64,000 nt of DNA, taken from positions 320,001 to 384,000 of the forward strand of contig JAHPZA010000009.1 in NCBI GenBank assembly GCA_019058445.1, in the 5' to 3' direction. The notes below the pieces were generated by a model, which was given only the letters and a program-made list of their open reading frames with translations, was not told the origin of the DNA and ran no database searches. The position numbers and the translations under genes were made by a program. Shown here one piece after another: positions 6,255 to 26,981 of this stretch. This DNA comes from Promethearchaeota archaeon (GTDB taxonomy: Archaea; Asgardarchaeota; Lokiarchaeia; Sigyniarchaeales; SOKP01). How positions within the stretch are numbered: the stretch's first letter is position 1; each line of letters begins with the position of its first letter.

Positions 6255-7682
6255 TTATTTATCTTCAATATTAATTCCTAAGTTTCTAAGCTTTTCCCTT
6301 ATTTCATCGCTAATATCATAAAGTTTTTTCTCTCTCAATTTGTTCCTGATATCTTTAATAATTTCCAAGAGTGAATTAATGATTTTATCTTTCTCATCAA
6401 CTGTGCCATTAAATTTGTCTTTAAGTTGTTGCTTTAGATTAGGGAATAATCCAAAAATCTCATCTATTGTTTCGATGAAATTAAAGAATTTATCCTTGAA
6501 CGTATTGGTAACCTTGTTATTCTCTTCAAAAACAATACGATTAATCTCTCTAAATAATGTCATAATTTCTGCAATTGCTATAGGAGTGTTAAAGTCATCA
6601 TCCATAGCACTAACGACATTTTGCTCTGTACTGTCTATTTTATTAATTAACTCCGCTATTTTATGAGTTTCATGATCGATGGTTTTTATGTCGTTAATAT
6701 TTCGAATTGTATTTTTCAGTCTCTCATAATTTTTTTTAGCCTGATTCATATTATCTAATGAGTAATTTACCGATTTTCTATAATGGCTGGAAATTAGAAA
6801 TAATCTGATAACCATCGGGTCATATTCTTTGGCCACTTCTGAAACAAGAAAAAAATTCCCAAGGCTTTTAGACATTTTCTCATTATCAACATTTACAAAA
6901 CCGTTATGCATAAAATAGTTCGCAAAGGGCTTGCCGGTGTATGCTTCAGATTGAGAAATTTCATTACGATGATGTGGGAATTTCAAATCCTGCCCGCCTC
7001 CATGAATATCAATTGTTTCACCAAGATAATTAATTGCCATTGCGGTGCATTCAATATGCCATCCTGGCCTCCCTTTTCCCCAAGGGCTTTCCCAAAAAGG
7101 CTCATCTTCCTTTGATTTTTTCCATAGTGCGAAATCTTTTGGATTTTTCTTCTCTTCTATATGATTATAATCGATTTCCTCCTCTTCTTCAGCCTCTAAA
7201 TCCTCCTCTGAAATATTTTGCAAGATTGTCCTATATTTTGAAAATGAGTTTACATCAAAATATACAGAAGCATTACTTTCATAGGCATGTCCTTTTGATA
7301 TTAGTCCCTGCACTATTTCTATCATAAAATCGATAACTTCAGTAGCACGCGGATTTTTATAATCCTTTTGAATATTTAAAATATCCATAATTTCCTCGTA
7401 TTCTTTTATATACTGCTCGCTTAGTGTTTTATAGTCAACGCCGCGCTCATTCGCCCTCTTAATGATTTTATCATCAATATCAGTATAATTTTTCACAAGT
7501 TTTATTTCAAACCCTTTAAATTTAAAATAACGTCTTATCAAATCGAAAGCTACAGCTGACTTCGCATGCCCTAAATGGGGGCTGTCATATACAGTTGGTC
7601 CACACACGTACATTAATACTTCATTTGGATTCAGAGGTTTAAACTCTTCTTTTTTAAATGTTAGACTATTGTAAAGCTTCAT
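6255..7682 (-). CDS. cysS: Cysteine--tRNA ligase (class I)
   Basis: MYVCGPTVY..HLGH (HIGH), GRPGWHIEC, DIHGGGQDL.FPHH, KMSKS. Start moved to ATG 7682 (MKLYNS), which has GGTGAT upstream. Confidence 0.97.
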   Translation of the reverse strand: MKLYNSLTFKKEEFKPLNPNEVLMYVCGPTVYDSPHLGHAKSAVAFDLIRRYFKFKGFEIKLVKNYTDIDDKIIKRANERGVDYKTLSEQYIKEYEEIMDILNIQKDYKNPRATEVIDFMIEIVQGLISKGHAYESNASVYFDVNSFSKYRTILQNISEEDLEAEEEEEIDYNHIEEKKNPKDFALWKKSKEDEPFWESPWGKGRPGWHIECTAMAINYLGETIDIHGGGQDLKFPHHRNEISQSEAYTGKPFANYFMHNGFVNVDNEKMSKSLGNFFLVSEVAKEYDPMVIRLFLISSHYRKSVNYSLDNMNQAKKNYERLKNTIRNINDIKTIDHETHKIAELINKIDSTEQNVVSAMDDDFNTPIAIAEIMTLFREINRIVFEENNKVTNTFKDKFFNFIETIDEIFGLFPNLKQQLKDKFNGTVDEKDKIINSLLEIIKDIRNKLREKKLYDISDEIREKLRNLGINIEDK

Positions 7683-7737
7683 TGATAATATCACCGAGAA
7701 GGTTAGTTAGTAAAAGACATTGAAAATCAATAATTAG

Positions 7738-7874
7738 AGCCAGCGGTGGGATTTGCATCCAAAATGGAAAGCCATTTTAAGTTTTGCACCCACGAATAAC
7801 CGCTCTGCAGGCGGTCTCCTTAACTACTCGGAATTGCGCTATTAGCGTATATGCTATTATATAGATACGCTGGC
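7738..7874 (-). tRNA. tRNA-Cys(GCA) with two non-canonical introns (exons 7874-7866, 7832-7783, 7751-7738)
   Basis: Spliced 73-nt cloverleaf: GCCAGCG TA TCCG AGTAGTTA AGGA G ACCGC CTGCAGA GCGGT TATTC GTGGG TGCAAAT CCCAC CGCTGGC T. It has the U73 discriminator typical of tRNA-Cys, anticodon at 7808-7806, and lies next to cysS. Confidence 0.88.
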
Positions 7875-8062
7875 AAAGACGCTGGCATGTAATACTCTAT
7901 TTAATAATTAATTCCTTATTATGTTATTTTTGTTATATTTATTTAAATATTTAGTTCTAATTGTTTTTTATCTTTTTTCCTTTTAATATATACAAGATTG
8001 AGACTTTGGTTTTATCAAAAGGAGGTTAGTAACTATATTTAAATAAAAATTACGGGAATGAA

Positions 8063-8995
8063 TTATTCTAAATCACTCCATAGAGGAGTACTTAAATATC
8101 TTTCACCCCAATCGCACACAATAAATACTATGTTTTCTCCTTGTTCAAATTCCTTAGAAACTTCATGAATTGCTGCCCAAGCAATTGCCCCAGAACTTAT
8201 TCCAGCAAAGATTCCTTCTAACCTTGCCAATTTTCGGGCAGTAGCAATTGCGTCTTTATATTCAACTTGAATAACCTTATCATAAATTTCAGTATTAAGT
8301 ACATCAGGCACGAACCCTGCACCAATTCCTTGGATTTTATGAGGTCCCGGTTTACCCCCAGATAAGACTGGTGAGTTTTTAGGCTCAACAGCATATACTT
8401 TAAGCCTGGCTCCTACTCTATCTTTGAGAATCTCGCCTACTCCTGTAATAGTACCCCCTGTTCCAACTCCTGCCACAAATGCATCTACTTGCCCAGCTAA
8501 ATCATTGAATATTTCTTTTGCAGTAGTTCTGCGGTGAATATCTGGATTAGCTAAATTCTTGAATTGCTGTGGAATGAATATATTTCCTTCTTCTTTAGCC
8601 AACTCTTCAGCTTTGGCAATAGCTGCTTTCATACCACCTCCTTTTGGAGTCAGAATTACTTTCGCACCAAAAGCCTTTAGAACTTGCCTTCTTTCAATTG
8701 TAACACTTTCGGGCATCGTAAGGACTAAGTTATATCCTTTTGAAGCACACACTAGAGCTAATCCAATTCCGGTGTTTCCTGAAGTCGGTTCAATTATAGT
8801 CGTATCTTTAGATATTATGCCCTCCTCTTCGGCTTTTTCAATCATTGCCATTCCGATTCTGTCTTTAACAGAGCCTCCCGGATTGAAATATTCACATTTA
8901 GCATAAAGATTGGGTTTAATCCCTTCGGTTATTCTATTTAGTTTTACAAGAGGAGTCCTTCCTATTGTTTCGATTATATTATTATATGCTCCCAT
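8063..8995 (-). CDS. cysK: Cysteine synthase A (O-acetylserine sulfhydrylase)
   Basis: NPGGSVKDR (PLP Lys), EPTSGNTG, GVGTGGT, GPHKIQGIGAGF, GERYLST. Confidence 0.96.
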   Translation of the reverse strand: MGAYNNIIETIGRTPLVKLNRITEGIKPNLYAKCEYFNPGGSVKDRIGMAMIEKAEEEGIISKDTTIIEPTSGNTGIGLALVCASKGYNLVLTMPESVTIERRQVLKAFGAKVILTPKGGGMKAAIAKAEELAKEEGNIFIPQQFKNLANPDIHRRTTAKEIFNDLAGQVDAFVAGVGTGGTITGVGEILKDRVGARLKVYAVEPKNSPVLSGGKPGPHKIQGIGAGFVPDVLNTEIYDKVIQVEYKDAIATARKLARLEGIFAGISSGAIAWAAIHEVSKEFEQGENIVFIVCDWGERYLSTPLWSDLE

Positions 8996-9053
8996 TTAAT
9001 TTCATCTCACGTTATTTAATTTTGATTCATAATATAACAAATTTCCAAAAATA

Positions 9054-9899
9054 TTAGATTCCTCCACCATAATCACCATAAAAAATTTCTATATCACCTT
9101 CTTTTGGTTGTTTAATAATAGAAAATTTTTTTTCTAATTCTTGTATTCTTTTTTCTAATGCCGAAATCGTGATGGATAAAGGATCTGGCATATCTCCATG
9201 CCGGAGGTCAATTTTTTCTATTTTTTCACCTTTTCTCGAAATGATTTTCCCAGGAACTCCCACAACCACTGAATTTGAAGGGATATCATTTACTACCACG
9301 GAATTAGCCCCCACTCTCACATTATCTCCTATCTTTACAGGTCCTAGTACTTTTGCCCCTGTACCTAAAACAACATTATTTCCAATCGTCGGATGCCGTT
9401 TTTTCTTTTCAAGGGATGTACCTCCTAAAACCACTCCAGCATAGATCGTAACATTATTTCCGATTTCAGCAGTTTCTCCGATGACAACCCCAGTTCCATG
9501 GTCAATAAAAAAATCACTGCCAATAGTAGCTCCAGGATGAATTTCAATGGCTGTCAATTCACGAGCGATATCTGATATATATCTCGGGATAAAAGGCATC
9601 CCTAATTTCCAGAAGAAATGACTAATACGATAAAGAAGAACTGCTTTTATACCAGGATAACTAGTAAGTACTTCTAAAAGACTACTGGCAGCAGGATCTT
9701 TATGAAACGCAGCACTTACATCTGAGACAAAAAAATCTAAAATTTTTTGTAATTCTTTATCAATATCTTGACGATCAACATCTGAAGTTCTATAATTCAA
9801 GTCTAATATGCATTCTGCGCAATATGCTGGACCATTTTGCTCTTTTGTACCCAGGTTTTTACCACAATTTAAGCAGTGTAGGAACTTTTTCATTGACAT
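9054..9899 (-). CDS. cysE: Serine O-acetyltransferase with N-terminal CxxC-x14-CxxC extension
   Basis: DPAA..YPG, EIHPGA.IG..FFIDHGTGVVIGETA, KRHPTIG, hexapeptide repeats; C-terminus GDYGGGI. Confidence 0.93.
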   Translation of the reverse strand: MSMKKFLHCLNCGKNLGTKEQNGPAYCAECILDLNYRTSDVDRQDIDKELQKILDFFVSDVSAAFHKDPAASSLLEVLTSYPGIKAVLLYRISHFFWKLGMPFIPRYISDIARELTAIEIHPGATIGSDFFIDHGTGVVIGETAEIGNNVTIYAGVVLGGTSLEKKKRHPTIGNNVVLGTGAKVLGPVKIGDNVRVGANSVVVNDIPSNSVVVGVPGKIISRKGEKIEKIDLRHGDMPDPLSITISALEKRIQELEKKFSIIKQPKEGDIEIFYGDYGGGI

Positions 9900-25268: not shown

Positions 25269-26981
25269 TCAATAAGCACGCTCCTTTACTTCAAATATTC
25301 CCAATATAACGGGTTTTTGTTTCAGCTCTAAACCATCTTTAGTTCTATAAACTAAAGAGTGCCAAAGAAAATTCTTATCATCTCGTTCAGGATAGTCCCA
25401 GCGGTAATGTGCACCCCTACTCTCTTTCCTCATCAAAGCAGCATATGCAGTTACTTCTGCAATATCTAACATACTTCTAAGCTCCAAAGTGCGAATAAGA
25501 CCATAATTAAATTTACGATCTGATGTTGCTATGTGTACGTCTTGAAAATCTTCTTGTAATCTTTTAAGATCCTCATACGCGTATTTAAGTTCATCTTGTT
25601 TTCGAAAAACTCCAACATATTGATTCATAATTCCTCCCATGGCCTGCCTTATTACAACTGGTTTTTTACCGCTGTTATTTTCCCATTTTTTAAATAAATC
25701 TTCAGTTTCCTTTAATACTTTATTTTCAACATTTTCTCTGATAGGTGAGGATGGTCTTGAGGGTAAGCCTTTTTCCAATAACTTTCTGCCAATGGCTCTT
25801 CCGAATACTGAAGTTTCTAATAATGAATTACCCCCTAAACGATTTGCTCCATGAACAGAAAGGCATGAACATTCCCCAACAACCCATAGTCCAGACAAAT
25901 CAGTTTCTCCAAAATCTCCTTCAAATTTTGTAGCTATCCCTCCCATACTATAATGTTGACCAGGTTGTACGGGGATTGGCTCCTCAATTGGATCTATTCC
26001 CGCAAAGTAAATACTTATCTCTCGAATCCCGGGAAGCCTTTCATTTATTTTATTCGCACCTAAATGAGTAAGATCTAGATTAACGTAAGCATTTTCGAAG
26101 CCACGCCCTTCCATGACTTCAATGTCGATTGCCCTCGCTACCATATCACGAGGTGCAAGTTCCATTGCCTTTGGGGCAGTTTTGCTCATAAATCGTTCAC
26201 CTTCATTGTTATACAAAAGCCCTCCTTCTCCGCGTGCCCCCTCGGTAATTAAAATATTTGTACCATATAAAGTTGTAGGATGGAATTGTACAAATTCACA
26301 GTCTTGCATTGGAACTCCCGCTCTGAAAGCTGCGCCATTTCCATCTCCTGTATTGATAATTGCATTTGTAGAGCTTTTAAACATTCTCCCAAATCCTCCC
26401 GTGGCGAGAATAACATACAATGATCGAAATATCACAAGTTCCCCGCTGGCAATATCAAGACAGATGACGCCAGCGATTTTATTCTCAACAACAATAAGGT
26501 CAATCAAGAAATATTCATCGAAAAATTTAACACTATTTCTAACACACTGTTCATATAAGGTATGCAAAAGTGCATGTCCAGTACGATCTCCTGCGTAACA
26601 AGTACGAGGAAAGCCAGCTCCTCCGAAAGGTCTTTGGGCAATTAAGCCAGAATCTAACCGCGAAAATGGAGCTCCCATACTCTCAAATTCAATCACAATT
26701 TTTGGAGCTTCTTCACACATAAACATTACTACGTTTTGATCAGCTAAATAGTCGGAGCCTTTAACTGTATCAAACGCATGTCCTTTCGGGGTATCATCCT
26801 TGCCAACTTCTAGATTGCCTAGAGCAGCGTTAATTCCTCCTTGAGCAGCTCCTGAATGGCTACGTACAGGATATACTTTACTAATAATCGCTACATTCCA
26901 TTGAGATGATAATTCCAAACCAGCTCTTAGGCCACTAAGTCCTGCCCCTACAATAATTACATCAAATTCTTCAATATCCAT
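25269..26981 (-). CDS. sdhA: Succinate dehydrogenase/fumarate reductase flavoprotein
   Basis: GAGLSG, RSHSGAAQGG (covalent-FAD His), QFHPT, ITEGARGEGG, ELAPRD, HYSMGG, HGANRLGGNSL, ESRGAH. Confidence 0.96.
   Translation of the reverse strand: MDIEEFDVIIVGAGLSGLRAGLELSSQWNVAIISKVYPVRSHSGAAQGGINAALGNLEVGKDDTPKGHAFDTVKGSDYLADQNVVMFMCEEAPKIVIEFESMGAPFSRLDSGLIAQRPFGGAGFPRTCYAGDRTGHALLHTLYEQCVRNSVKFFDEYFLIDLIVVENKIAGVICLDIASGELVIFRSLYVILATGGFGRMFKSSTNAIINTGDGNGAAFRAGVPMQDCEFVQFHPTTLYGTNILITEGARGEGGLLYNNEGERFMSKTAPKAMELAPRDMVARAIDIEVMEGRGFENAYVNLDLTHLGANKINERLPGIREISIYFAGIDPIEEPIPVQPGQHYSMGGIATKFEGDFGETDLSGLWVVGECSCLSVHGANRLGGNSLLETSVFGRAIGRKLLEKGLPSRPSSPIRENVENKVLKETEDLFKKWENNSGKKPVVIRQAMGGIMNQYVGVFRKQDELKYAYEDLKRLQEDFQDVHIATSDRKFNYGLIRTLELRSMLDIAEVTAYAALMRKESRGAHYRWDYPERDDKNFLWHSLVYRTKDGLELKQKPVILGIFEVKERAY

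Follow-up and report, generated by a model that had tools for sequence, protein, structure and literature searches.

Introduction

What lets tRNA introns of archaea survive at certain positions but not elsewhere is posed as an open question in a 2026 preprint on Asgard archaea, whose tRNA genes are published there as heavily interrupted (bioRxiv 10.64898/2026.10.13.758758). The tRNA-Cys(GCA) gene described here brings this question to a single point: one of its introns lies at 9/10, and since tRNA nucleotides 4–7 are needed for pairing with the intron, the splice motif is incompatible with the 7-bp G+C-rich acceptor stem. How can such an intron be removed and retained? The answer proposed below is a second copy of the 5' acceptor strand in the leader of the gene, which is probably functional and would act during splicing as a stand-in for the true strand. 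If this is true, a leader-encoded stand-in strand places a concrete and testable constraint on intron position and adds a cis element of a new kind to tRNA processing.

The Interrupted Gene and Its Leader

The source genome (designated G000) is of Asgard type and has a size of 4.6 Mb and about 31% G+C, and the window, that is, the whole stretch of 64,000 nucleotides that was analysed, contains the gene on its minus strand. The majority of tRNA genes in this genome are interrupted: ARAGORN reports 23, mostly doubtful, and many Rfam matches are partial. On raw DNA the tRNA-Cys gene is missed by both ARAGORN and the Rfam tRNA model, neither of which finds anything in the window, and a repeated acceptor strand may therefore serve as an annotation signal that flags such hidden 5' introns. 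The following features were assigned, all on the minus strand.

7940..7957, minus strand: GAACTAAATATTTAAATA, a BRE/TATA-like motif and putative promoter, located 53 nt before the leader copy
7880..7886, minus strand: leader copy GCCAGCG, equal to tRNA nt 1–7 and complementary to the 3' acceptor strand (sequence, fold)
7875..7879, minus strand: spacer TCTTT, 5 nt, from the leader copy to the tRNA start (sequence; CCTTT in the closest relative, G002)
7866..7874, minus strand: exon 1, tRNA nt 1–9, GCCAGCGTA (junction of intron-less orthologs, ARAGORN on the spliced sequence)
within 7866..7874, minus strand: exon 1 nt 4–7, the 5' strand of the central splice helix (motif reading)
7833..7865, minus strand: intron 1, 33 nt, at 9/10, relaxed bulge-helix-bulge (sequence, fold; homologous intron in G002)
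7783..7832, minus strand: exon 2, with D arm, anticodon arm (GCA), variable loop and 5' half of the T arm (90–98% identity to orthologs, ARAGORN)
7752..7782, minus strand: intron 2, 31 nt, T loop (59/60) (sequence, ARAGORN on the spliced sequence)
7738..7751, minus strand: exon 3, with T60, 3' strand of the T stem, 3' acceptor strand CGCTGGC (7745–7739) and discriminator T7738 (sequence, ARAGORN)

When the 33-nt insert at 9/10 and the 31-nt insert in the T loop are removed, a canonical tRNA is restored and ARAGORN calls tRNA-Cys(GCA); intron-less orthologs read GCCAGCGTA-TCCGAG at the first junction, exactly as predicted for the spliced molecule. CCA is not encoded in exon 3. The motif definitions are those of Marck and Grosjean 2003, as quoted in bioRxiv 10.64898/2026.10.13.758758. 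Intron 2 has a perfect central helix (TGCA/TGCA), bulges AA|A and AA|T, and the hairpin AAAATGG/CCATTTT, and it is missing from G002 and other orthologs, where the uninterrupted arm has the sequence GTGGG-TGCAATT-CCCAC or one close to it.

Intron 1 is of the relaxed class. The first-pass annotation had described its motif as pairing of nt 4–7 (AGCG) with the intron, which stands for three of the four central pairs only (AGCG/CGCA), CGCA at 7838–7835 being paired with nt 5–7; the bulges TA|T and AT|T are of 3 nt each, and the inner helix is formed by CTAT (7864–7861) and ATAG (7842–7839). The same annotation pointed to ATACGCT in the intron as complementary to AGCGTAT, and this complementarity is real (7850–7844 with 7871–7865); it is not the splice motif, however, the resulting helix would bury the 5' splice site, and ATACGCT is better described as a competing partner. 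A two-step splice in this genome and in G002 via the perfect AGCG/CGCT helix with an AA bulge was also considered and is thought unlikely, leaving 9 extra bases and requiring a second intron of 9 nt.

Upstream of the gene the minus strand reads T7887-GCCAGCG-T7879, then CTT, then T7875-GCCAGCG-T7867. Thus TGCCAGCGT occurs at 7887–7879 and again at 7875–7867 with a 12-nt period, in exact agreement with the repeat first noticed in the annotation, and therefore a complete second GCCAGCG lies 5 nt upstream of the tRNA start. In the 64-kb window this 7-mer has five occurrences against 0.77 expected, a number reached in 0 of 100 shuffles; three of the five belong to the tRNA-Cys gene, two as the direct repeats and one as their 3' partner (7739–7745), and the duplication is non-random and real. 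The other two (window 26444–26475) are inverted, 18 nt apart and unrelated to tRNA. Two further roles for the upstream sequence were rejected: it cannot be the genuine exon 1, as nucleotides 8–9 are wrong and no fitting splice motif is found, and it does not supply an outer helix, as the leader shows no complementarity to exon 2.

The leader copy is predicted to be transcribed. Many orthologs have kept a GAACTAAATATTTAAATA-type motif in front of tRNA-Cys amid varying flanks, and this motif is distant enough for the copy to fall within the expected leader; in Thermofilum pendens the tRNA promoters are located 30–49 nt upstream of the mature 5' end (PMC3218864). The opposite view, that transcription starts at the true tRNA start or later and the copy is a DNA remnant of an old start site outside the RNA, is very improbable: the A+T-rich TTATTAAATA (7907–7898), about 24 nt upstream of the true start, could be a TATA box, but A+T-rich strings are everywhere in a genome of 31% G+C, the ortholog-conserved motif lies much further upstream, and a remnant would have no need to stay complementary to the 3' strand.

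The genes around tRNA-Cys on the minus strand (window 6255–9899) are arranged in the order CysE-like, CysK-like (PALP), tRNA-Cys, and cysS, all on the same strand; cysS follows about 45 nt downstream of tRNA-Cys, and the two may be co-transcribed. Nearly all cysS-linked members of the family that were seen have G at position 55 and the T loop TGCAAAT or TGCAATT (window 7783–7792 and 7751), the exceptions being two orthologs with TTCAAGT/TTCAATT. A second tRNA-Cys(GCA) of the source genome (G000:C1:166866, minus strand) has a normal TTCAAAT T loop and a D-loop intron.

Orthologs of the tRNA-Cys Gene

The first-pass annotation had proposed to compare orthologs with and without a 9/10 intron for the presence of the duplication. 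Orthologs were searched for in 154 genomes of the order, the class-level search yielding no further genomes, and all those whose match began after position 8 were inspected. An intron at 9/10 or 10/11 was found in 12 readable genomes, two more being interrupted by contig ends and left out, and the leader copy is present in 12/12 of them, a count that overstates the number of independent events because the genomes are related. Among 35 distinct orthologs that are uninterrupted from the acceptor strand to the D arm, none has the copy, and their best upstream 7-mer has at least 3 mismatches; these 35 include at least 8 genes with a D-loop intron, which leaves the acceptor strand untouched. The proposed comparison thus came out as anticipated for tRNA-Cys, and the pattern is met again in tRNA-Thr(GGT), as described in the next section.

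Four layouts of the copy were observed in tRNA-Cys. In the first the two copies abut as GCCAGC|GCCAGCG (G003, G006, G008, G009, G014, G050, G111, and G131; 8 genomes of 3 genera), and the others have a spacer of 5 nt (G000 and G002), 4 nt (G051), or 3 nt (G023). The abutting and 3-nt-spacer layouts are accompanied by a canonical motif with all four central pairs (GCGT/ACGC or AGCG/CGCT), 3-nt bulges, and an inner helix of up to 9–10 pairs. The abutting copy is conserved: it is invariant in the 8 genomes, whereas variation is seen at 22 of the 30 columns before it (Fisher p 0.0015). The copy also matches the local acceptor sequence, since G051 has GCCAGTG in both the leader and exon 1 and CACTGGC as the 3' strand, a match which is trivial where the duplication is recent; the splice motif of this gene has only two of four central pairs, and no convincing motif could be drawn. 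G007 has its upstream context in common with G002, yet has neither the copy nor the intron.

The tRNA-Cys genes of G131 and G111 are mosaics: from the upstream context through the leader copy to the 5' intron they look like genera g1 and g6, but in the variable-region intron and the downstream flank like g2, the genus to which they belong, and intragenic recombination is suggested. As a separate observation, several relatives have dense arrays of 15–25 intron-less tRNA genes with high Rfam scores (G002:C308:5286-8170, G004:C160:620-2118, G008:C14:5171-8085, and G009:C22:30303-33334), in contrast to the interrupted chromosomal tRNA set; a mobile-element or viral origin of these arrays is a guess.

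A Second tRNA Family and Other Genes

Partial Rfam matches in the source genome led to tRNA-Thr(GGT) at G000:C9:575657. In this gene GCCTCAA is separated by 5 nt from GCCTCAAT, behind which a canonical intron of 29 nt begins at 8/9; the intron has a perfect central helix (nt 3–6 with TGAG) and an inner helix with 8 of 9 pairs, and the 3' strand of the gene is TTGAGGC. The 8/9 intron and the leader copy occur together in 3/3 genomes (G000, G108, and G081). The latter two have GCCTCTA as acceptor strand and TAGAGGC as 3' strand, and in their leaders G108 carries GCCTCTA and G081 CCTCTA; the intron partner tracks the acceptor strand (TGAG in G000, GGAG in G108, and AGAG in G081), and all four central pairs of the splice helix form in all three genes. 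Co-occurrence of the copy with acceptor-invading introns is therefore observed in two tRNA families, and, judged from sequence, tRNA-Thr(GGT) is an independent replication of the tRNA-Cys pattern in an unrelated gene. No intron at 8/9 to 10/11 was found to lack the copy among the tRNA-Cys and tRNA-Thr orthologs.

The position of the copy relative to the promoter-like motif can be followed in the same family. Intron-less Thr genes have a conserved promoter-like motif 43–45 nt before the tRNA start, and in G000 and G108 it is the leader copy that is found at this distance, the true start being located 12–16 nt further on.

An exact copy is present in 0/46 distinct intron-less Thr sequences and a near-copy in one, G018 (G018:C166:6000-6270). 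This gene has no 8/9 intron, and its leader 7-mer GCCCCTG, with a 9-nt spacer as in G108, forms Watson-Crick pairs with the 3' strand throughout and so matches it better than the true 5' strand does, which has a U.G pair. The 7-mer either was left behind when an intron was lost or is older than the intron, and, if the G018 gene is functional, it suggests that a copy is tolerable to the gene.

A scan of the source genome for acceptor-stem and T-arm signatures gave 36 tRNA-like genes, of which Cys and Thr(GGT) alone are interrupted at or before position 10. A leader 7-mer pairing 7/7 with the gene's own 3' strand was found in only 3 of the 36, namely Cys, Thr(GGT), and Leu(GAG). In the last of these (G000:C1:127439-127563, minus strand) GTAGGAG is repeated after a 4-nt spacer and the sole intron is a canonical D-loop intron at 15/16; the relatives read GCAGGAG and have the same D-loop intron and no copy, which is thus specific to this genome. 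On the grounds of the intron position and of these copy-less relatives tRNA-Leu(GAG) was rejected as a third example, and its copy is treated as incidental or as a pre-adaptation. The two copies found with no acceptor-invading intron, in Leu of G000 and Thr of G018, mean that the copy is not exclusive to such introns. When 343 kb of loci were scanned for other triples of a repeat with its partner, nothing but junk turned up beyond the known cases. At G000:C4:473791 and G000:C4:98728 two tRNA genes start with GGGAGGG and have CCCTC(T) a few bases upstream, which is complementary to their own 5' strand and so of a polarity opposite to that of the tRNA-Cys leader copy.

Folding of the Precursors

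The first-pass annotation had proposed that the leader copy pairs with the 3' acceptor strand and frees exon 1, and had suggested folding the precursor with and without the leader. The models agree with the proposal. With the leader, the predicted minimum-energy fold has the leader copy on the 3' strand and exon 1 on the intron (−50 kcal/mol), and the leaderless precursor is predicted to form a normal acceptor stem (−44.4), so that in the models the leader shifts the 3' strand onto the copy. The helix of leader copy and 3' strand has a predicted probability of 0.91–1.00 in 9/9 precursors and the true acceptor stem a probability of about 0; for the window gene the ensemble value for pairing of the copy with 7745–7739 is 0.99. 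This helix is an unbroken one of 7 bp with no bulges.

Both the pairing and its energetic effect are thus modelled. When the splice motif is enforced in the precursor models, the leader increases its equilibrium share by a factor of 17 to 37,000 relative to the leaderless form. As a copy-to-complement mutant proved not to be neutral, it was replaced as a control by random and shuffled sequences. Compared with 100 versions in which random A+T-rich sequence took the place of the copy, the predicted splice-motif share ranks in the top 0–2% for 8 of 9 constructs; against composition-matched shuffles the leader advantage is smaller, and for G000 and G002 it is not significant (30% and 94% of shuffles do as well). 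The layout of these two genomes has three of four pairs in the central helix, which faces competition from the 7-bp AGCGTAT/ATACGCT helix.

In the two-dimensional model the leader copy is still favoured (0.5–0.97) once the precursor has been spliced in silico, and therefore an exchange of strands would need tertiary structure or an enzyme such as RNase P.

Proposed Mechanism and Alternatives

According to these data the best explanation, and one that we hold to be reasonably probable, is that the GCCAGCG of the leader acts in cis as a stand-in (decoy) for the 5' acceptor strand. It would pair with the 3' acceptor strand of the precursor, and the true 5' strand, being thus free, would build the splice motif for the splicing endonuclease, on which account splicing would depend on the leader. 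Once ligation is done, the true strand would displace the leader copy and RNase P would then remove the leader. The enzymes implied by this scheme are encoded in the source genome: the splicing endonuclease is represented by a single PF01974 match (68 bits, 203-aa open frame, G000:C9:770595-770843), and the archaeal RNase P RNA is found at G000:C3:7495-7803 with 127.5 bits against a cut-off of 84. With this RNA encoded and the leader located upstream of nucleotide +1, the locus has what is expected of a 5' leader removed by RNase P, the cleavage itself being predicted.

The copy most likely originated by short tandem duplication of the 5' end of the gene and would have been kept by selection wherever an intron sits at 8/9 to 10/11. 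The main rival explanation accepts the same origin and denies the selection: the copy would be a neutral by-product, a tandem duplication of the tRNA 5' end that comes or goes with the intron, through slippage, for instance, or recombination in which mature-tRNA cDNA aligns on the upstream copy, and that has no role in splicing. The repeats do look like tandem duplications of 6 to 16 nt, the window gene duplicates the flanking T on both sides, and the first copy sits where the tRNA starts in intron-less relatives as counted from the promoter-like motif (38 versus 39 nt and 44 versus 43–45 nt). The shared upstream context of G007, with neither copy nor intron, and the copies in Leu of G000 and Thr of G018, with no such introns, also agree with a neutral course. 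However, the intron is not flanked by the repeat, which is hence no target-site duplication, seven layouts in two tRNA families all retain 6–7 matching bases, the abutting copy is unchanged across three genera despite its varying flanks, and every 8/9 to 10/11 intron that was found has a copy, which together make the neutral explanation unlikely.

A functional copy could also act in another way, by keeping an acceptor/T-arm minihelix on the precursor for 3' end protection, 3' trimming, or CCA addition during the time in which exon 1 is engaged, and not by driving the splice motif. Identical pairing is predicted for this case, which overlaps with the stand-in explanation to the extent that sequence alone does not separate the two, and the leader 7-mer of G018, a perfect partner of the 3' strand in a gene with no 5' intron, fits an intron-independent role; but the near-confinement of copies to genes with acceptor-invading introns is left unexplained, and the minihelix is regarded as improbable, though less so than the DNA remnant discussed above.

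The stand-in strand may be extended, tentatively and with somewhat less than even confidence, to a general archaeal rule: an intron that borrows the 5' acceptor strand (from about 3/4 to 10/11) would become fixed only where the leader supplies a stand-in strand. Under such a rule the leader helix, splicing, the true acceptor stem, and RNase P cleavage would follow one another in this order as a programmed strand exchange, and the copy would be an undescribed cis-chaperone element that limits intron sites.

Comparison with Known Systems

The nearest known relatives are the non-canonical archaeal tRNA introns of Thermoproteales and Asgard archaea. Common to them and to the introns described here are short length, splicing by protein (predicted here), locations outside 37/38, and several introns per gene, as well as 3-nt bulges and an inner hairpin, and both are missed by standard tRNA finders. 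The known motif also has a 4-bp exon-intron central helix, of which intron 1 of the window gene forms three pairs. The published descriptions cover the intron and its motif only, whereas the tRNA-Cys gene adds a leader copy. In the Asgard preprint (bioRxiv 10.64898/2026.10.13.758758) the words "leader" and "decoy" are absent, and a leader copy of the acceptor strand is not described in the reviews and primary papers examined on introns of archaea, on tRNAs of the split and permuted types, and on the structure of the endonuclease.

In split and permuted tRNAs (Nanoarchaeum equitans, Caldivirga, and Cyanidioschyzon; PMC4090602, PMC4033280), as in the proposed scheme, a flanking sequence pairs next to the tRNA, enables the endonuclease, and is later discarded. 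Their flanks, however, form the bulge-helix-bulge itself and are cut by the endonuclease, whereas the leader copy forms a plain helix of 6–7 bp with no bulges and would need RNase P for its removal. A leader of the split or permuted type that forms the splice motif was ruled out for the window gene by the uninterrupted 7-bp helix between the leader copy and the 3' strand.

Direct repeats of a tRNA terminus adjoining an intact gene are also left as attL/attR duplications by archaeal viruses and plasmids (PMC3293823). The att repeats comprise tens of bases and flank an inserted element with an integrase, whereas the leader copies comprise 6–7 bases, lie 0–9 nt apart, and have nothing between them. 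An integrase att site was accordingly rejected for the window gene, where the repeat is only 7–9 nt, no more than 3 nt follow the shared T as a spacer, and there is no insert between the copies.

In attenuators and riboswitches mutually exclusive helices are formed, one strand picks between two partners, and this choice gates downstream processing. The choice between alternative partners is common to these regulators and to the precursor proposed here, which would work with neither a ligand nor a ribosome. Unlike theirs, the tRNA-Cys switch would be set off when the intron is removed, and RNase P would make it irreversible.
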